Below, in pieces: positions 11,232 to 37,873 of a DNA stretch of 64,000 bases (positions are counted from its first letter, which is position 1; the number at the start of each line of letters is the position of its first letter). The DNA comes from Nitrospirota bacterium (GTDB lineage: Bacteria; Nitrospirota; Thermodesulfovibrionia; Thermodesulfovibrionales; UBA9159). The stretch lies in assembly GCA_963699545.1 (NCBI GenBank), contig CAVOUE010000012.1, forward strand, positions 97,140 through 161,139. The letters are read 5' to 3'. A program made the position numbers and the translations under genes. The notes beneath the pieces were generated by a model, which was given only the letters and a program-made list of their open reading frames with translations, did not search any database and was not told the DNA's origin.

Positions 11232-11268
11232 AAAAAAGGCCGAACATACCCAAGGTTCTTCCTTCGGC
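11232..11268 (-). terminator. Riboswitch expression-platform terminator
   Basis: GCCGAA...TTCGGC followed by CTTTTTT; its 5' arm overlaps the aptamer 3' strand. Confidence 0.75.
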
Positions 11269-11342
11269 AGCCCAGCCATCTTCCTTTAAGACCTGTTGCT
11301 TTCCGTCCCCTTCTCACGAAGGGTTTGGTTTTATCGGGAAAC
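11258..11342 (-). ncRNA. GEMM-I (cyclic-di-GMP-I class) riboswitch, A20 variant predicted to bind 3',3'-cGAMP
   Basis: CGATAAAACCAAACCCTTC-GTGA-GAAGGGGACGGAAAGC...GGTCT...GCTGCCGAAGG fits the GEMM-I architecture (GNRA-capped P2, GACGGAAAG junction, P3). Confidence 0.88.
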
Positions 11343-26026: not shown

Positions 26027-28150
26027 ATGAGCTTCTGGAGCGCGATACAGAGAGATTATAAGGCCGTTTTCAGGAACGACCCTGCGGCGCGGAACGGAGT
26101 GGAGGTGGTCCTTGCCTATCCGGGCTTCCATGCCATCTTCCTCCACAGGATCAACCATGTCCTCTGGAACCTCGGGATACCGTTCGTCCCCCGGCTTTTC
26201 TCCCATATCGCGCGGTTCCTTACGGGTATCGAAATCCATCCTGCAGCGAAGATCGCGCCCGGTTTTTTCATTGACCACGGCATGGGTGTCGTGATAGGAG
26301 AAACCTCAGAGATCGGAGAGGACTGCCTCCTGTATCAGGGGGTTACCCTTGGAGGAACAGGGAAGGAAAAAGGGAAGCGTCACCCCACCCTCGGCAAGAA
26401 CGTCGTGGTCGGTACCGGCGCCAAGATCCTGGGCGCGATCACCATCGGGAACTCTGCCAAGATAGGGGCTAACGCCGTTGTTCTTGATTCCGTGCCCGAC
26501 TACGCCATTGTGGTGGGTGTTCCGGGAAAGGTCATCAAGAAGAAGGTTCTCCGGATGATGGACGAAGGTGCGGTCGAAAGCCTTTCCCGCGTGCACCTTC
26601 CGGACCCTGTGGAAGAAAAGTTCAGGGAAATGGAAAAATATATCGCCGGACTCGAAAAGAGGATGGAGACACTGGAAGGAAAGGGAGGGAGGATGCGAGT
26701 CTACAACACCCTGAAAGGGAACAAGGAAGAACTGATTCCCCTCAGTACGGGCAGGATCGGGATGTATGCCTGCGGGGTCACGGTGTATGATCTCTGCCAC
26801 ATCGGTCATGCCCGCAGCGCCATCGTCTTCGACGTGATGCGGAGATACCTTGCTTTCAAAGGCTTTGAGGTCAAGTATATAAGGAATTTCACCGACATTG
26901 ACGACAAGATTATCAACAGGGCCAAACAGGAAGGTATTTCCTGGGATGAGGTTGCGAGGAAATACACGGCGGAATATTACCTGGATATGGACCGGCTCGG
27001 CGTGGGAAGAGCGGATATGGAGCCAAAGGCCACGGAGCATATACCGGAGATTATAAACATCGTCAAAGGTCTTGTGGAGAAGGGATATGCGTATGCCGTC
27101 GATGGCGATGTCTACTTCGAGGTCAGGAAATTCTCAGATTACGGAAAGCTCTCGAAGAGGGATATAGAGGATATGCTGGCCGGTGCCCGGGTGGAAGTTG
27201 ATGAGAGGAAACAGAATCCCATGGACTTTGCCCTCTGGAAGGCATCAAAAGAAGGGGAGCCGTCGTGGAACAGCCCGTGGGGTCCGGGAAGGCCGGGATG
27301 GCATATCGAATGCACTGCCATGTCCATAAAGCATCTCGGTGAAAGCTTCGATATTCACGGAGGAGGGGCGGATCTGATCTTCCCTCACCATGAGAACGAG
27401 CTGGCCCAATCCGAAGCGTATACCGGTAAGCCATTTGTGAGATACTGGATTCACAATGGCTTCATCACCATCGATAAAGAGAAGATGTCAAAGTCCCTCG
27501 GGAATTTCTTTACCATCCGGGAGATCCTGGACACGTTCGACCCCGAAGTGGTGAGGTTCTTTCTCCTCTCGACACATTACCGGAGCCCTATCGAATTTTC
27601 GGACGAGTCCCTGAGGGAGGCGGAACTGTCCATCGACCGGTATTATTCCACGGTGGTGAGGATGGAAGATTTCCTGAAAGAAGCGCAGAACAGGGAGAAA
27701 CAGACCGGGGAAGAACGATCACTGGAGGAGACCCTTGGCGCGTTCATGAACAGATTTCAGGAAGCGATGGATGACGATTTCAATACCGCCCTTGCCCTTG
27801 GTCACCTCTTTGAGCTGATCCGGGAGGTGAACAGGTATCTGGATTCCAAACCTTCAGGCCAGAATGCGAAGGAGTTCATAGCAAAAGCAAAAGACCTGCT
27901 GCGGAAGGCAGGGGGCATTCTCAATATCTTCAACAAGCTGCCCGAAGAATGGAACGACGCCCTGATGCAGACCAAGAAGATCCCCTACACGAAGCCCGAG
28001 ATCCTTGACAAGATCAGACAGAGGCAGGAAGCAAGGCAGAAAAAGGACTGGTCAGCTGCGGATGCCGTAAGAAAAGAACTGGAGGCACAGGGGGTAATCC
28101 TTGAAGACAAAAGGGACGGCACCTCCTGGAAGGTGAAAATCGGCAAGTAG
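26027..28150 (+). CDS. cysE-cysS: In-frame fusion of serine O-acetyltransferase and cysteine--tRNA ligase
   Basis: TGIEIHP, DHGMGVVIGET and KRHPT in the N-terminal part; CGVTVY, HIGH, GWHIEC and KMSKS in the C-terminal part. Confidence 0.92.
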   Translation: MSFWSAIQRDYKAVFRNDPAARNGVEVVLAYPGFHAIFLHRINHVLWNLGIPFVPRLFSHIARFLTGIEIHPAAKIAPGFFIDHGMGVVIGETSEIGEDCLLYQGVTLGGTGKEKGKRHPTLGKNVVVGTGAKILGAITIGNSAKIGANAVVLDSVPDYAIVVGVPGKVIKKKVLRMMDEGAVESLSRVHLPDPVEEKFREMEKYIAGLEKRMETLEGKGGRMRVYNTLKGNKEELIPLSTGRIGMYACGVTVYDLCHIGHARSAIVFDVMRRYLAFKGFEVKYIRNFTDIDDKIINRAKQEGISWDEVARKYTAEYYLDMDRLGVGRADMEPKATEHIPEIINIVKGLVEKGYAYAVDGDVYFEVRKFSDYGKLSKRDIEDMLAGARVEVDERKQNPMDFALWKASKEGEPSWNSPWGPGRPGWHIECTAMSIKHLGESFDIHGGGADLIFPHHENELAQSEAYTGKPFVRYWIHNGFITIDKEKMSKSLGNFFTIREILDTFDPEVVRFFLLSTHYRSPIEFSDESLREAELSIDRYYSTVVRMEDFLKEAQNREKQTGEERSLEETLGAFMNRFQEAMDDDFNTALALGHLFELIREVNRYLDSKPSGQNAKEFIAKAKDLLRKAGGILNIFNKLPEEWNDALMQTKKIPYTKPEILDKIRQRQEARQKKDWSAADAVRKELEAQGVILEDKRDGTSWKVKIGK

Positions 28151-28224
28151 GGGGCTTCGATTCCCATCGGTTTGTTTTTGTTGAAATACCCTGAAATGCT
28201 CTCCGCATACGCAATAGCTGCAAT

Positions 28225-28431
28225 TCAAAATACCGTCGAAACAAACTGGTCCATCCTCGTCGCCGAACCCGTTCGTATCGACTTCCCCACTTCAACTGCC
28301 ATTATAATTTCCTGCTCATCAATCCCATTTTCGCGGGCCCTGCCCACGTGGTGTTCCACTCACCCCTGACAGTTTGAAGCAACAGATGCTCCGACAGCGA
28401 TCAATGACTTGATTTTTTCATCAAGACCCAT
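28225..28431 (-). CDS. AhpD/carboxymuconolactone decarboxylase-family selenoprotein (CxxU), 68 aa
   Basis: GGAGG SD; MGLDEKIKSLIAVGASVASNCQG-UGA(28360-62)-VEHHVGRARENGIDEQEI; SECIS-like hairpin 28332-28348. Confidence 0.88.
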
Positions 28432-28500
28432 AATGTATTCCTCCTTCCAGGCTTGGGGACATTAATGTGCGATCAACCATACCGATAAACTATCGGCACG

Positions 28501-28719
28501 TTACAGTGTTCATGAACCTCCGTATCCAATTGTCACCTTGTCTCCTTCCACGATGACCGGAACCCTTGCAGCGCCTTTCGTGTATTCAAGCATCTCCTTC
28601 AGTTTTGCCCTGTCCGACAAGACCTCGATATAGACTGCGGTATCGCCAAAGGCCGACCTGGCCGCTTGACTGAAGGGTCATCCCTTCTTGCCAAAGATTT
28701 TTATCACTGTTTCCGTCAT
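28501..28719 (-). CDS. UXX-star-type glutaredoxin-like selenoprotein with two Sec, 72 aa
   Basis: FGKKG-UGA(28678-80)-PFS...RVPVIVEGDKVTIGYGGS-UGA(28510-12)-TL-TAA; hairpins 28651-28663 and 28478-28500. Confidence 0.88.
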
Positions 28720-28770
28720 CCCATTACCTCCCTTTCAGTTTATAGCTATGGCGCAAGGCCCGATACTACG

Positions 28771-29307
28771 TTACTCTATAAGGAGAAGTGCGAAGTAGTT
28801 CCATTTGCCGTATGTCTCTTTTTTCGTGTCGACCTCAAAGCCGTTGGCCCGCGCTGTTTTGAAGACATCTATGCCGCAGGCTTCCATAAGGGGCCTGATC
28901 CTGAGTTTTTTCTGGTCACCAGTCTGAGACTCACCCTGAGTCTCCGCCTCACCAGAGGGTCACGTTGCCCCTTCGGGCCCTGAAGAGAGAGCAGTCATCG
29001 CGAATGCCTTGTAAAAGCCCATCTGGTATGCCTCGCCTTCAAGCCTCACGGCGGTCTCGGTGAGGGTCTTCCCCTTGGAGCCGTTCATGAGGATCGCTTT
29101 GCTGTATTCCTTCATCATCTTTTTTGTGCTGTCCGCATCGGGAGCACAGGGGGGATGATAGGCGTCCTTACCATGGAATGCACAGCCGTAAACGCACTTC
29201 CACCTCACCCACTCCTCTACGACAACAGCACTGGTATTTATGACCCTGGCTTTCTCGGCCCCAAGCTCAAGGGACCTTTTTAAGAGCTGGTCTGTTTTAT
29301 CTTCCAT
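28771..29307 (-). CDS. DUF2284-like metal-binding selenoprotein, 178 aa
   Basis: WVRWKCVYGC...PPCAP...GPEGAT-UGA(28960-62)...RPLMEACGIDVFKTARANG; the family motif lies after the UGA; hairpin 28926-28944. Confidence 0.85.
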
Positions 29308-29335
29308 TCCATCACCTCCTTCACGTGTGGTGGCT

Positions 29336-30271
29336 TCATTTATGTTTAAGCGTATACTCTCTGCCGTCCCGGTTACGACCTCGGCAGGATGTCCGTCCTC
29401 CTGAAAAATACGGACACCGTTCTTCCCTGCACCCGTGGGGATGCTTGACGCCATGATTGCAAATTATTGATTGGCTTAGGGGCAGCACGAGTCCGAGGCT
29501 TTCCCCAAGGTAATTCACCGCCGCATCAAGGGATGTCCTGACATACGCCTTACAGCAGCTCGGGCCTGTGAGATCGGTTATCGCCCTCGCAACCCTTGTC
29601 ACCGCCTCCATGGTGATCCTCTGCTCCTCATCTTTACCGCATTTCGAACCCGTGAGGACTGCAAAACAGGCCCCCATGGCCGGGGCGATGCCGCAGACGC
29701 CGCTCAGGCCGCAATAGCCGCCGTGGGCCTGCTTCCTTGTGCGTTTAAAGACCTCCTTGATCTCTTCATCCGTCATGCCCTTCACGCCTTCGTTCTTTAT
29801 CGCGGCCATAAGTGCCCCGCCGGCAATGTACGCATGCTGGCAGCCGAGCATCGGAAGTCCCGGGAAACTCATGGCAATTTCGGCTATCTCGAAGGGATTG
29901 CTTGATGACGTCGAAAATATAGTATCTTCTATGATCCTCATCGAATCCCTGTTGTGACAGAGGTCGCAGATATAGTGGCCGCTTAGGCAACTTATATGGC
30001 CGTGCTCAAGCTTGCCACAGTATATGCACTTCAGCTCCTCTGCCTTGTCGTGATACGTCAGGGGCGTGCCGCAGACCATACAGTGCTCGGTTGCTTTAGT
30101 CTGAACTTCTACGACAGGTTTATCCCCCTGGTTCCCGCTTTCGCAAAGCCCTTCTATGGTCCCGGTTAACGACTTTGAAGCGCTGTTTTGATGCCCACCA
30201 GCATCATCGCCCGGCTCTCAATCTCAGCTGCCATCTTCTCTCAATTCTTTCCTCTCTTTTTCCTCTGCCAT
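29336..30271 (-). CDS. DUF5714-like Cys-rich protein with an N-terminal UxU motif, 311 aa
   Basis: AAGGAGG SD; MAEEKERKELREDGS-UGA-D-UGA-EPG, in frame with CMVCG, CIYCG, GHYICDLCH, GGYCG and GPSCCK; hairpin 30189-30206. Confidence 0.82.
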
Positions 30272-30283
30272 TGTTTCCTCCTT

Positions 30284-30577
30284 TCATCGGAACAAGAGGG
30301 TGTATCCCACCAGCCCCAGGCTCAAGGCAGTCGTCACGTAGAGCATTCTCTTTCCCCACGGGTCGGCAGATCCCCTCTTCCGGAAAAATGTCCTGTGGTA
30401 CGCCATTCCCAAAAAAGCAAGGGTTACGAGCACGAAAATCCATCGGTAGCTCACCATCCAGACGCCTAGGGTCAGGCTTCCCAGGCCCAAACTGGCCAGG
30501 ATCAGGGGAAGCTGTCAGGCGAAAAAAGCTACCGCTGAAGAAATGACAGCACCGCTCTTAAAAAATGACGCCTTCAT
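30284..30577 (-). CDS. MerT-like membrane transporter selenoprotein, 97 aa
   Basis: MKASFFKSGAVISSAVAFFA-UGA(30515-17)-QLPLILASLGLG...YRWIF, three TM segments; the UGA sits at the MerT CC site; hairpin 30484-30497. Confidence 0.8.
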
Positions 30578-30618
30578 GAAATTCTCCCTTCACCACTTGA
30601 AACAATTACTCGAATCTC

Positions 30619-31122
30619 TTATGTGCGCTTTCGGGTTTCTTTTCTCGGTCCCCACGCCTGCATCTTTATCTTTCCCTCCCGAGCGAGTTTGCCAAGGATA
30701 AAGAGGACGCTCTCACGATTCAGCTTAAAGTATGAAGCTACCTCGTCAGGGTCCACTTTTTCTCTGTCGGTGAGAAATACGACTATCTCATTCTCGATCT
30801 CTCTCATCCAGTCATTAAAGAGTCCCCGCAGCTCCGGGGTCGAGTACGTGGCCAGCTCATAGGAATGGCTCACCGCCGATATGACCTCCTTGCTCATCTC
30901 CACCGGATTCACCCCTGAATCCGAACACTCCTTAATTCATTCATCCACCAGCGACGCCAATTGTCGCCCCTTTTTCCTGCCGGCAGCCACGCTCCGGAGC
31001 ATTTCTTCCTTATCAGCTTCGTTCAGGTCCTTTAAGAGCGTTGTGACAAGGCTGCTCAGGACCTCTCTCTTTTCGGTGGAACTCATACCGGTCATGACCT
31101 TTTCGATCGTGCCCTTTTCCAA
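30619..31122 (-). CDS. Unknown selenoprotein (UxxxC) with a wHTH-like C-terminus, about 167 aa
   Basis: ORFs 30937..31131 and 30619..30912 are in frame, separated only by UGA 30937-39; strong hairpin 30903-30924; TTG start after GGAGG. Confidence 0.78.
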
Positions 31123-31127
31123 TGAAA

Positions 31128-31562
31128 TCACCTCCTCTTTTCAGCATTACGATGAATGTTGTCCTTCGGTTTCCTCATTATAGGAGTCCGTTTGATCTGC
31201 CTCTCCACTTTCCACATTTTTTTGACGACAGGTTCGGGCTTTCCGTTTTTATTCGGTTTTTTATCATTTAATTGAGAAAGATCAGCGAGAATGTCCAGAA
31301 GCGAAGGGTCAGACAGACTGTAATAGATAAAAGGACCCTTCCTTTCCGTCCGCACGATGTCGGCCTCGCGCATGATCCTCAGGTGAAAAGAGACCAGGGT
31401 TTGAGAGAGGCCGGTTGTCCTCACAAGCTCCGTTACCGACCGGGATTCCTTACCGACGGACATAACCATGTCCAAACGGTTCCTATCCCCAAGAGCCTTG
31501 ATGAAGCGGGCAAGTGTATCCATGTCGTTGATATTCCAGCCGTTTACCATATCAAAATCCAT
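31128..31562 (-). CDS. ArsR/SmtB-family regulator heading the selenoprotein operon
   Basis: KALGDRNRL, SQTLVSFHL and RKGPFIYYSL. Confidence 0.9.
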   Translation of the reverse strand: MDFDMVNGWNINDMDTLARFIKALGDRNRLDMVMSVGKESRSVTELVRTTGLSQTLVSFHLRIMREADIVRTERKGPFIYYSLSDPSLLDILADLSQLNDKKPNKNGKPEPVVKKMWKVERQIKRTPIMRKPKDNIHRNAEKRR

Positions 31563-31565
31563 TCA

Positions 31566-31612
31566 TATGAGTAGATACTCATAGTGTATAAGAAGAAATT
31601 CATGATTGTCAA
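31566..31612 (-). promoter_or_regulatory. Promoter with an ArsR-type inverted-repeat operator
   Basis: TTGACA-18nt-TACACT, then the perfect palindrome TATGAGTA-TC-TACTCATA (31566-31583). Confidence 0.75.
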
Positions 31613-31833
31613 GCGGGAAAAATTATCTTCTCTACGGTCTTCGGGTATCCTCTCTCAGAGGAAATTGAACCTGTTTCGGTAATGCTCGCTCTCGTCGATG
31701 ATCCCTTTGTTGTAGTGCTCCTGCCAGTTTCACCGTTCGGTGTCAAGGGAGAGTAAGGAACAGCTTCTCCGACCCTCAAGGGAGATATTTACAGAAAGAA
31801 TTATCAATCCTGGAGCAATGATTTCTTATTACG

Positions 31834-34198: not shown

Positions 34199-36511
34199 AT
34201 TTATTTCTCCTTTAAACAGCCAGCCCTGCATGAGAGTTACAAGGGCGGGCAGGTAAATTATTGTCATAACTGCGCTCAGAAGCATCATGCTGACGATAAA
34301 AGCCCCAACTGTTATATATGGCGTAAGCGGCGCAAACATCATCACGGCGAAGGATGCGGCAAAGAGAATCGCATTGCGCATTATTCCTTTGCCCGGCCGC
34401 GCAGCAGTCCAGAGCAAGGCATCTGATAACGATTCACCTGCGGCCGGTTTCTTTCAGCCGCTGCCGCAACCTGCTCACAAAGTGGATCGCAAAGTCAACC
34501 GCCATGCCGAGGGAGAGAGTGGAAAGCACTGATATCGGCATATCGAAGTCCTTTCCGATGAAACCGACAACGCCATAAATAAGAAGAATCGTAAACAGCA
34601 GAGGAGTGTAACCGACAATCGCCCATTTACGGAGCGGAAGTCGAAGGCGAGTATCGCGAAAACGGCGATCAGCGCAAGGACAAAGCCCTTTACCATGTCC
34701 CACAAGACTTCATGGTTCCACACAAGGTTGAAATATGCGATGCCGGAAGGCTTCATTTCCATGGGCGTGGGATTGGTCTTCTTGTAGTCGTCCACCGCGT
34801 CTAATGACATCTTTCATCGCCTGCGCATCCCATGTCTTCAACTGCACCCAGATGTTGGCCCTCCTGAAAGGATAGTCGACAACATTGTCCAGGTCAGAGG
34901 GCTTTGCGGACATGGAGAACAGGAAGAGGTACTGGCCTATCATCTCCTTGTGTCTCCGGCACAACGTCGTATTTCGGGTCGTCGTCATGGAGCACGCGGT
35001 TTATCCTCTTTACGTAATCCACAACGGAGGTCGTCTTGCCTACGACCGGCAGCTTTTCAAGCCGCCTCTGAAGTCCTTCGATATACCGCATTGCTTCAGG
35101 TGTCTTAATGTAGTCGTCGTCCTTTGCAATCGCCACGACGTAACCGAGGGATGTCCCGCCCAGGGCCTTGTTCATCACTGAATCCGCAACACGGACATCG
35201 CTGCCTTTCTTGAACCATTCCACGAGATTGTTGTTCACGGTTATTCTTGTCAAACCGATGACGGCGATTACAAAAAGAATAAGGCCGACTATTACGGTAT
35301 TCTTCGGATGGTGCACCCCGAACCCGGCGAGTTTTTTCAGGAACTGAGACGTCTTGCCCATGCCGAAGTGTCTTCCGACCCGGCGATCTTTTCTATCTTC
35401 TCTTCCTTTCACGAAGGTGAACATTGCCGGGATAAAGCTGAAGCTCAGGATTCTCAGCGAGATCGTCCCGAAGGCCACAAGCCCTCCGAAGACCTTAACA
35501 GGGATGATGTTCATGAAAAGAAGCACGGCAAAGCCGGCCGCCGTTGCCAGTGCGGTGTTGCGCACCGGGCGGCTCACGGCATGCATCGTCTCGATGATCG
35601 CCTTTTTCTTGTCCTTTGTCTCCCGGTACCGGAAATAGAACTCATTGAAGATATGCATGCTGTCCGTTGCAATTGCCATAAGAAATACAGGCGCCATGGA
35701 ACTCATGATGTGAATGGGAAAGCCCAGACCCGATGAGCAGCCCCATGCTCCAGACGATGCTGATCATGGCGTCCATCATGAGCGTGATCGAGAGAAAGAG
35801 GTCCTTGAACATGAGATATCTGACAAACAGCATGATCATGCCCGCTATTGGAGCAAAGACAGCCATGAGCTTGAACATCTCCGCGCCGAACGTGTCCCGT
35901 GGCAACAGGATCGCCGGCTATGTAATACTTCTCGTCTCCCTTTTCTTTCTTGACGATCTCGCGTATCCTGTCCGCAATCTCCTTGCCGTTCGACCCTTTT
36001 TCAAGGGGCACGTAGATTGCTGTCGTCTTTCCGTCTTTTGAAATAATACGGTTGATGAAAAGGGGATTCTCGTACAAGCATCTTGCGGAGATATTCAATC
36101 CCTTTCTGATCTTCGGGGACATCTGTCATTAACGGGGCAACCCTCGAGCGTCCCATTATCGACAGTGACATTGTCGATGGTGGTAAAGCTTGACACATCC
36201 CGTGCGGCAACGCCTTTGATCTTCAGGACTTCATCAGTTATTCTTTGTATCTTCTCCAGGGTGTCAGTATTCAGAATGCCCTTTTCGTTGACGATCCCAA
36301 GGGCGATCATGTCCTCGTAAAGACTGAAGGTCTTTTCCACCTCGTCATTCCAGACCCTGACATCGGACGTTGCGGGCAGCATGTTCTTAGGGTTGGTGTC
36401 AGTCCTCATCTTCGGGAACTGGGTCATAAAGAGCAGGGTGAGGATTACGGACAGAAGAACGATTAATTTGGGATGCTCTACAGAAAACTCAACAAGGGAA
36501 AATGTTCGCAT
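34199..36511 (-). CDS. MMPL/RND-family transporter, several frameshifts
   Basis: Two TM clusters and large periplasmic loops; AIATDSMHI and LGMAVDFAIHF. Confidence 0.85.
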
Positions 36512-36685: not shown

Positions 36686-37873
36686 TCATGGTAACCCGCT
36701 GAGGCCGTGTTTCATCTTCCAGAGAAAGTACCTTTCAAATACGATCTTCCCCCATCTAAACCAGATGCCTTCTTTAAACACCGATTTCTGCCTTGGCGGG
36801 AGCACCGGACTTGCCTTCATGTACGCAGCGGTATTGCCCATATCCATAAGACAAAGGACGTCAATGGGGATATCTTCAGGGGGCCTGCTTCCCGTACTAT
36901 CTGCAACAATTGCCGATGAAGCGGTTTTTGCCATCCTTACGGTCATATACCCTGTCTTAGGAACGCCCGTGGGAACGGGCGTCTGTTCAGGAGGGGCGAT
37001 CGCTACCGCAACCCCAACAGCAAAGATATTCTTATATTTTACATGCCGGTATTTCCCATCGACAGGAATGAACCCTCTTGGGTTTCCGAGGTGTGCAACC
37101 GCGGGAACCCCTTTCATGGCAGGGGCAAACATCCCAAGCTTGAAGGGGATCTTTGTGCCGTCCTTCAACCGCACCTCATCAGGCACTATCTCTTCGACAG
37201 CAGTGTTGACGATGATTTTGATATCCCGCCTTGCGAACTCATCCTCCATCATCCGTTTGGAATCCCTTAATCCACCGATACCGAAATGGCCTATGTATGG
37301 CTCCGAGGTTACAAAGACCATGGGCACCTTATGGCGGATTTTCCTTCTGCGGAGTTCCGTGTCTATTTCGAAGGCATACTCATAGGGCGGACCGAAACAG
37401 CTCACTCCCTGGACAGAGCCGGTAACAAGGGGACCGGGATTCTCAAGGAACGTATTCCATGCCTTATTCGCCCTCTCCGCCTGGTCAAGGGTGAAGATGC
37501 ACTCAGTGTTCCCCTTCTCCGGCCCGAGGCCAGGAACTTCTTCAAAGGCAAGATAAGGTCCGGTGGCTATAACGAGATAGTCATAAGGGATATCCCTTGT
37601 TTCCGTTAAGACCTTAGACGCTTCGGCATCCACCCCTTTCGCTTTTTCGTGGACAAACGTTATGCCTTTCCTTTCCAGGATCGGCTTTAACGGGAGGGTA
37701 ATATCTCCGGCCTTCCTGCTCCCCATGGCAACCCACGGCAGGGAAGGGACAAAAACAAATTTATCATCGTCGCAAACGACGGTCACCTCCGCTTTTTTCC
37801 CGAGGAGTCTTTTCAGTTCAAACGCTGCAGTGAGTCCCCCGAAAGAACCACCCAAGACAACAATCCTCGCCAT
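36686..37873 (-). CDS. sqr: Sulfide:quinone oxidoreductase-like flavoprotein
   Basis: GGSFGG Rossmann fold, ECIFT, SCFGPPYE, GVPKTGYM and LCLMDMG. Confidence 0.85.
   Translation of the reverse strand: MARIVVLGGSFGGLTAAFELKRLLGKKAEVTVVCDDDKFVFVPSLPWVAMGSRKAGDITLPLKPILERKGITFVHEKAKGVDAEASKVLTETRDIPYDYLVIATGPYLAFEEVPGLGPEKGNTECIFTLDQAERANKAWNTFLENPGPLVTGSVQGVSCFGPPYEYAFEIDTELRRRKIRHKVPMVFVTSEPYIGHFGIGGLRDSKRMMEDEFARRDIKIIVNTAVEEIVPDEVRLKDGTKIPFKLGMFAPAMKGVPAVAHLGNPRGFIPVDGKYRHVKYKNIFAVGVAVAIAPPEQTPVPTGVPKTGYMTVRMAKTASSAIVADSTGSRPPEDIPIDVLCLMDMGNTAAYMKASPVLPPRQKSVFKEGIWFRWGKIVFERYFLWKMKHGLSGLP

Follow-up and report, generated by a model that had tools for sequence, protein, structure and literature searches.

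The open reading frame (ORF) at positions 28771–29307 on the minus strand of a 64,000-nucleotide stretch of DNA from a Nitrospirota bacterium (assembly GCA_963699545.1, contig CAVOUE010000012.1; the whole stretch is referred to as the window) is assigned, with a probability of about 0.88, to the C-terminal DUF2284 domain of the known selenoprotein family MbdU. According to this reading, which is based on sequence comparison, the domain would belong to one ORF of approximately 500 codons (28771–30271, minus strand; family model NF045648) and would carry selenocysteine (Sec, U) at residue 116, followed in the messenger RNA by a hairpin of the selenocysteine insertion sequence (SECIS) type. The gene is seen as two ORFs in the assembly because one extra G near position 29397 shifts the frame between its halves.

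Translation of 28771–29307 gives 178 residues followed by a TAA stop, and codon 116, at 28960–28962 on the minus strand, is the sole in-frame TGA. The residues around this codon are SSGPEGAT-U-PSGEAETQGESQTGDQKKLRIRPLMEACGIDV, and no Cys is encoded between U116 and C145. Pfam PF10050 (DUF2284) matches the ORF with 95.5 bits over model positions 2–161 of 161 (gathering threshold, 25 bits), and this match of the whole model above threshold places the ORF in DUF2284. The domain is the same from end to end as that of Cys-type DUF2284 proteins, which are annotated as "predicted metal-binding protein", and it keeps their C-x3-C...C triad and the Cys of MEACGIDVF. In contrast, it lacks their invariant C-x2-C-x2-C-x5-C cluster, and U116 faces the second Cys of that cluster. 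The preliminary description of this DNA had noted the GPEGAT-U-PSGE segment and the Cys-free linker, both of which are present in the translation, and had given a GPCxxCxxC-type cluster as normal at this place in DUF2284 proteins. This was accurate, since seven Cys-type domains from relatives read AGPC-x2-C-x2-C-x5-C...ARPSME and CxxCxxC is present in 39 of the 46 homologues in which the segment pattern matched. Some homologues (P0220 and P0225) have no Cys at all at the cluster place.

A profile search for the domain in public genomes retrieved 42 related loci. TGA occupies the position of codon 116 in 39 of them and a Cys codon occupies it in none, and the set is skewed to the Sec subfamily because the search pattern contained RPLMEACG. 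The remaining three loci (L107, L108 and L111) are fragments or too distant for placement. The TGA-bearing loci span five phyla, under the labels Nitrospirota, Desulfobacteraceae, Nitrospinaceae, Actinomycetota and Firmicutes, and in all 39 the reading frame continues past the TGA. Conservation within the DUF2284 domain is highest in the 62 residues past the TGA, where RPLMEACGIDVF...NYFAL is unchanged in all 9 sequences compared. Large protein collections present the family mostly as ending at the TGA, with matches spanning about 57–67% of the query; likewise, the top matches in a representative library stop at profile positions 104–112, where U is position 109.

A Cys/Sec pair is provided by P0002, a stand-alone protein of 181 residues and 59% identity, which reads GGTT-C-PTAPEE with Cys in the U column. 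Furthermore, an hhalign comparison with 15 Cys-type proteins (probability 100%, E 3.9e-57) aligned U with the second cluster Cys (C-x2-C-x2-C-x5-C), set E, E and D against the remaining three, and gave the Sec type two 3-residue insertions in the loop. Features of bacterial selenoprotein genes are therefore found here, namely a conserved in-frame UGA with coding conservation downstream and a Cys homologue aligned to the Sec. The genome also encodes selA (607.1 bits), selB (302.1 bits) and tRNA-Sec (72.9 bits), all over their cut-offs. Two points weigh against this part of the reading. MAFFT sets U one column off a Cys of the Cys-type cluster, so that the identity of the replaced Cys is taken from hhalign alone, and selD above cut-off was not found in the genome, which is estimated to be 87% complete (best scores, 66.9 bits for TIGR00476 and 27 bits for NF002098). 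A single Sec at the place of the Cys cluster, as claimed beforehand, agrees with the hhalign pairing, and the proposed homologues with U or C at residue 116 exist as the 39 loci and P0002, respectively. The converse outcome named at that stage, a UGA unique to this assembly in a non-Cys column, is contradicted by the same loci and by hhalign.

The family assignment is derived from NF045648 ("metal-binding double selenoprotein MbdU", 468 positions), which matches residues 2–178 of the ORF over model positions 292–468 with 333.7 bits. The upstream ORF (29336–30079, 247 residues) contains DUF5714 (PF18978, 160.8 bits) and matches NF045648 at model positions 42–270 as called; with its 5' extension read through two TGAs, the match covers positions 5–270 with 410.2 bits. 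Both halves score below the cut-off of 600 bits because each spans half of the model. A six-frame search of the whole genome found the MbdU pieces at model positions 21–272 and 275–468, abutting and in different frames. The N-terminal part of MbdU at 29308–30271 (minus strand; NF045648 positions 5–270) comprises a Sec-bearing tail, a Cys-rich zinc-ribbon-like stretch, DUF5714 and a linker, and it lies in one frame down to approximately 29398 and in the DUF2284 frame beyond. The order and adjacency of DUF5714 and DUF2284 are thus present at the locus with a single-base frame break between them, and near-identical sequences are fused. Shared with other MbdU proteins are this domain order with the Sec-bearing tail and linker, the T-U-PSGE site in DUF2284, the hairpins after both Sec sites and coverage of the model from 5 to 468, and the Sec of DUF2284 aligns with that of all full-length members examined. 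In contrast to those members, the window gene is divided between two frames by one extra base, and its N-terminus reads U-D-U instead of C-U, which would make three Sec residues and not two if all are decoded. Relatives encode the entire protein in a single frame with two TGAs, and the closest fused one, from the same family (G012), scores 740.8 bits against NF045648. Another fused relative (G036) scores 695.7 bits, six further members from the phylum score 740–773 bits, and the fused MbdU of Desulfosporosinus lacus scores 804.5 bits. In a sample of 401 genomes of the phylum, 7 exceed the cut-off and 58 have matches at E <= 1e-40, mostly of the DUF5714 half alone.

The suggestion of the preliminary description that the ORF may represent a new selenoprotein subfamily is unsupported, because Sec-bearing DUF2284 is already modelled by NF045648 and NF041536 and both are listed in published work (PMC13188914). 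That 2026 review tabulates the MbdU and ArsM/DUF2284 selenoproteins with credit to Haft & Tolstoy 2025 (mSystems 10:e0141724), and its table gives C-U as the motif of the MbdU N-terminus. On the side opposing the assignment, the portion of the review considered here reports no expression, selenium-labelling or metal-binding data for any MbdU member. A literature search for "MbdU" as a whole word gave nothing about the MbdU protein among the matches listed, and the BSepDB paper contains no mention of MbdU or DUF2284. The arsenite methyltransferase/DUF2284 selenoprotein family NF041536 shares the same Sec-bearing domain, which it matches at model positions 279–459 with 307.7 bits, whereas its N-terminal partner is an ArsM-type methyltransferase and that of the window gene is DUF5714. 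Membership in NF041536 was therefore rejected on the score, which is under the 575-bit cut-off, and on the upstream domain. A separate observation concerns P0122, an ArsM/DUF2284-like protein of 328 residues that has W at three successive T-W-PSGE-like sites within a triplicated linker. If these W residues correspond to TGA read under another code, P0122 would contain three tandem modules of Sec plus hairpin.

The joining of the two halves into one ORF depends on the extra base at 29397–29398, which corresponds to a C of CC on the plus strand, or on the gene strand to a G of GGAGGACGG, and which shifts the frame between DUF5714 and DUF2284. The assembly reads GGAGGACGG at 29390–29400, and the gene strand with one G fewer is GGAGACGG. 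Logan contigs of approximately 97–98% similarity from three runs in three studies cover the site, and three of three lack the base at 29397 (15 differences over 667 nucleotides (nt), 19 over 807 nt, and, for a 1273-nt contig, 29 over 599 nt across the region). Without the base the frame runs through as ...CPYFSG-DGHPAEVV...GGDGMEDKTDQLL..., and the fused protein P0123 (372 residues, with 98% identity up to the TGA) reads ...CPYFSGDGHP...GGDGMEDKTDQLL.... All but one of the 90 longer homologues have both DUF5714 and DUF2284. In this assembly selB is also broken, on contig C3 (318143–319991, plus strand), where model positions 1–314 and 312–577 lie in different frames with the junction at a G-run (L004/L010), and this break is probably also an assembly indel. 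Within the window, a resistance-nodulation-division (RND)/HAE3-type transporter is divided among at least four minus-strand ORFs that abut in different frames (36098–36511, 35706–36122, 34897–35706 and 34478–34810). Because selB and the transporter are frame-broken as well, an assembly error is the likely cause of the split at 29397, which is quite probably an indel of this kind and otherwise a recent mutation of the strain. Consequently, the 178-residue ORF, which the preliminary description had treated as a separate protein, most likely forms the C-terminal domain of a protein about 500 residues long.

The alternative that the split is real is unlikely. It holds that the +1 insertion is true, that a 178-residue DUF2284 selenoprotein is made from the ATG at 29307 and that the DUF5714 half ends at a TGA at 29336. 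A strong GGAGG precedes the ATG at 29307 by 8–12 nt, with AAGGAGGTGAT immediately before the ATG, and no sequencing run contains more than 0.43 of the sampled words, so that a true mutation of the strain could account for the extra base; among the runs listed as containing sampled words, none was an RNA run. Met at the boundary is also conserved in fused relatives (L070–L109), and 12 of the 21 distinct sequences have GGAGG no more than 24 nt before it. For this reason internal initiation may be ancestral, and the boundary Met with its GGAGG may mark an internal start site or be a relic of gene fusion. Stand-alone DUF2284-Sec genes occur in other phyla (L098, with 180 residues, L103 and L097/L110), and the Cys form P0002 also stands alone. 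Against a real split, however, are all three near-identical contigs that cover the site, the fused P0123 and the breakage by the assembly of the transporter and of selB, which is itself needed for Sec decoding; moreover, the frame upstream of the ATG still fits the family linker (model positions 275–291). A programmed frameshift at 29397 was rejected because the near-identical relatives simply lack the base. Single-base indels that break genes here, including selB, are a practical warning, and "stand-alone" ORFs are accordingly not to be taken at face value.

Several of the relatives show further arrangements. In L097 and L110, the stand-alone DUF2284-Sec gene overlaps the end of an MduS-like methyltransferase gene (NF045649, 267.2 bits, cut-off 380). 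L071, a second copy within one metagenome-assembled genome, has its DUF5714 part cut by an upstream ORF and its DUF2284-Sec part intact; by eye, the upstream ORF is IS200/REP-type transposase-like.

The hairpin that follows codon 116, GAGACTCA-GGG-TGAGTCTC, forms a perfect 8-bp stem starting 15 nt past the TGA and lies at 28926–28944 on the minus strand (5' arm 28937–28944, loop 28934–28936 and 3' arm 28926–28933), in agreement with its earlier description as a perfect 8-bp hairpin with a GGG loop. Its conservation was evaluated on an ungapped alignment of 38 distinct sequences (A2), from which L074 (identical to L073 there), L084 (TGA present, with a MEACS motif that escaped the pattern), L107, L108, L111 and the duplicates of L070–L104 that carry G handles are absent. 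In A2 the eight pairs are standard in 85.5% of cells, compared with 16–48% when the partner is slid by 1–3 columns, and double changes occur in six of the eight pairs (25 cells). The covariation score is 0.259, compared with 0.141 in shuffles, and was reached by 0 of 500, although covariation statistics of this kind can be inflated by relatedness of the sequences. Non-synonymous changes are among the compensatory ones, for example ACT/GAG to ACC/GGG in L081, the swap of three adjacent pairs in L095, A-U to U-A in Firmicutes and A-U to G-C in L109. The spacing from TGA to hairpin is fixed, the first loop base is invariably G, and the base 3' of the TGA is C in every sequence. The check for covariation named beforehand thus gave a positive result, and it is the conservation and covariation across relatives that raise the hairpin above chance.

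The fold of the single sequence gives less. For the 60 nt that begin at the TGA, the folding energy is -21.0 kcal/mol (z = -1.64), and 13 of 200 shuffles were as good or better, so that a lone sequence proves nothing about the hairpin. Also to be counted against a SECIS are the zero consensus pairs obtained with RNAalifold on the same 38-sequence alignment and the possibility that conservation of the hairpin is partly attributable to the conserved peptide it encodes. A search with Rfam at gathering thresholds returned no SECIS family in the window and only five tRNAs and a cyclic di-GMP (c-di-GMP) riboswitch. The stem-loop expected of a bacterial selenoprotein gene is present 15 nt past the UGA with covariation support and with a negative RNAalifold result.

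On the protein side, the Sec-type linker outgrows the Cys-type linker exactly at the spacer and the 5' arm. An AlphaFold2 model gave residues 111–132 a predicted local distance difference test (pLDDT) score below 50, within a domain of mean pLDDT 81.8 and a predicted template modelling score of 0.80. Low pLDDT is expected for a flexible loop, and the linker would therefore be free for shaping by the RNA. The idea put forward earlier that the linker is shaped by the SECIS is consistent with both the covarying hairpin in the Cys-free linker and this prediction. Bacterial SECIS elements of the fdhF type are hairpins within the coding sequence shortly after the UGA, have a G in the apical loop and need SelB, SelA and tRNA-Sec. 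The element described here shares with them the position in the coding sequence soon after the UGA, the loop G and the machinery in the genome, but it has a short 8-bp stem, a 3-nt loop and no Rfam match at the gathering threshold.

At the N-terminus of the gene, TGA-GAT-TGA (U-D-U) stands at 30218–30226 on the minus strand in place of TGY-TGA (C-U), which is found in 21 other loci with the hairpin GATGCC-GGTG-GGCATC 12 nt on. In the window the second SECIS-type hairpin, GATGCT-GGTG-GGCATC, lies at 30190–30205 (minus strand), 12 nt past the second N-terminal TGA and 18 nt past the first, the two UGAs being 6 nt apart. This hairpin pairs in 90.6% of cells over 23 sequences, compared with 17–57% when slid, and none of 500 shuffles attained its covariation score of 0.299 (0.095 in shuffles). 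The fold of the single sequence has z = -0.23. An N-terminal Sec codon is thus present at the position of the U of C-U, and the preceding Cys is replaced by U-D, a variant of the MbdU motif. The closest relative (G012/L104) carries TGA-GAC-TGA with its second TGA in register with the C-U loci, as in the window. Contigs of runs X3 and X5 retain both TGAs, and U-D-U was seen only in the window gene, G012/L104 and these two metagenome contigs. Between the window and G012, the core around U-D-U has three differences, all synonymous, whereas the whole 5' extension has 35 identical codons, 11 synonymous changes and 17 non-synonymous changes. A precedent for U-x-U is described in PMC1976440, for a rhodanese-like selenoprotein of an Olavius symbiont.

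It has also to be considered whether the hairpin after codon 116 is a by-product of the acidic peptide or serves in pausing or mRNA stability, with the UGA decoded via another signal. The 8-bp stem with its 3-nt loop, the negative RNAalifold result, the modest single-sequence z of -1.64 and the lack of an Rfam match in the region at the gathering threshold would all suit this explanation. It is nevertheless very improbable in view of the compensatory changes that include non-synonymous ones (L081, L095 and Firmicutes), the fixed spacing from the TGA and the second, unrelated hairpin, which follows the N-terminal Sec codon at a similar distance and covaries too. Least probable, and close to negligible, is that the TGA is a true stop after a 115-residue DUF2284 remnant or pseudogene with the last 62 codons untranslated: gene callers end nearly all database entries there and selD was not found, but the downstream codons are the best conserved and the frame remains open through them in 39 of 42 loci from five phyla, Cys-type homologues read straight through, the hairpin covaries and the genome has selA, selB and tRNA-Sec. 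An alternative genetic code was rejected because TGA serves as the ordinary stop of 14 of the 26 window ORFs of at least 250 residues. As judged from these comparisons, the TGA at codon 116 is a genuine Sec codon, and the selenoprotein claim of the preliminary description holds on the strength of the 39 of 42 loci, the covarying hairpin, the Cys of P0002 and the Sec machinery.

MbdU and its neighbours on the same strand form a cluster of selenoprotein genes, which together have seven in-frame TGAs in approximately 3.3 kb. Upstream on the minus strand are an ArsR/SmtB regulator like TsoR (31131–31562; NF045707, 89.1 bits, below the cut-off of 115), a TsoA-like ORF whose in-frame TGA lies at 30937–30939 (30619–31095; NF045695, 99.1 bits, below the cut-off of 170) and, directly before MbdU, a hydrophobic membrane protein of 68 residues (30287–30490) with a faint likeness to the C-terminus of MerT (E 1.5e-4, 22 bits, far below the cut-off). 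Downstream on the same strand are a glutaredoxin-like ORF of 72 residues that belongs to UXX-star selenoprotein family 1 (28501–28719; NF041114, 91.5 bits, cut-off 72) and an AhpD-core ORF of 68 residues (28225–28431; TIGR00778, 32.4 bits, cut-off 27.8). The UXX-star ORF has two TGAs, one in G-U-PFS at 28678–28680 and one in GGS-U-T-L-stop at 28510–28512, and the AhpD-core ORF reads C-Q-G-U with its TGA at 28360–28362 and ends at another TGA. A scan for promoters and terminators over 28200–31800 found sites no more numerous than in shuffles.

Facing the cluster is an ORF of 707 residues (26027–28150, plus strand) that appears by eye to be a serine acetyltransferase fused to a cysteinyl-tRNA synthetase. 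Elsewhere in the window, a c-di-GMP-I-GGC riboswitch aptamer lies at 11262–11338 (minus strand; Rfam RF03167, 66.9 bits, gathering score 59), and a pyridine-nucleotide-disulfide-oxidoreductase-like ORF of 395 residues lies at 36689–37873 (minus strand), for which the best match is the selenoprotein subtype of type III sulfide:quinone reductase with 106.9 bits, far below the cut-off of 525.

Based on these features, a possible mode of action can be outlined for MbdU. By analogy with known bacterial Sec decoding, the hairpin would recruit SelB and Sec-tRNA(Sec) to the ribosome paused at the UGA, and Sec would be inserted. Because the RNA element must lie within the coding sequence, it may dictate the peptide that follows U, PSGE-x-ET-x-GESQ. 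This peptide would replace C-x2-C-x2-C-x5-C with a flexible, acidic, Cys-free loop bearing one Sec. The full ORF of about 500 codons would then consist of the U-D-U tail, the Cys-rich ribbon, DUF5714, the linker and DUF2284, and the retained residues C38, C42, C54 and C145 could form a predicted site for a metal or cofactor. On the two flexible segments, the selenols may bind a soft metal or metalloid or transfer it onward, or they may take part in thiol/selenol redox chemistry. They could act jointly with the UXX-star, AhpD-like and TsoA-like selenoproteins and the MerT-like membrane protein under the ArsR/SmtB-type regulator. Such selenoproteins are mostly implicated, putatively, in metal or metalloid handling, as stated in the review (PMC13188914).

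With regard to the fold, a sequence search of the PDB gave no relative of the ORF, and Foldseek against the PDB gave no match at E <= 0.001, the best being QueG (5d0b_A, E 0.021). The entries recognized among the 50 matches listed are ones that we take to be nitroreductase-fold proteins. From the predicted model, DUF2284 may thus be tied to the nitroreductase fold, which includes the cobalamin enzymes QueG and reductive dehalogenase, as a weak lead on the fold and not as membership. This lead fits the fusions of DUF2284 to methyltransferases.

The core finding is a rediscovery of a selenoprotein family that was modelled by curators of the National Center for Biotechnology Information and published in 2025, and it opens no new question. 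Relative to the portions of the cited publications considered here, the additions comprise evidence from covariation for the two SECIS hairpins of MbdU, the residue-level account of how one Sec and a SECIS-encoded loop supplant the four-Cys cluster, and, as a small novelty, the U-x-U variant of the N-terminal motif. The weak structural lead from DUF2284 to the nitroreductase/QueG/dehalogenase fold is also added and could guide a first biochemical test. For this Nitrospirota clade, it can be suggested tentatively, at somewhat less than even odds, that MbdU is a triple selenoprotein in which U-D-U is served by one hairpin and three selenols are carried on two flexible arms about a nitroreductase/QueG-like cofactor domain whose Fe-S cluster has been lost, and that the DUF2284 arm could, through the boundary Met and its GGAGG, also be made alone.

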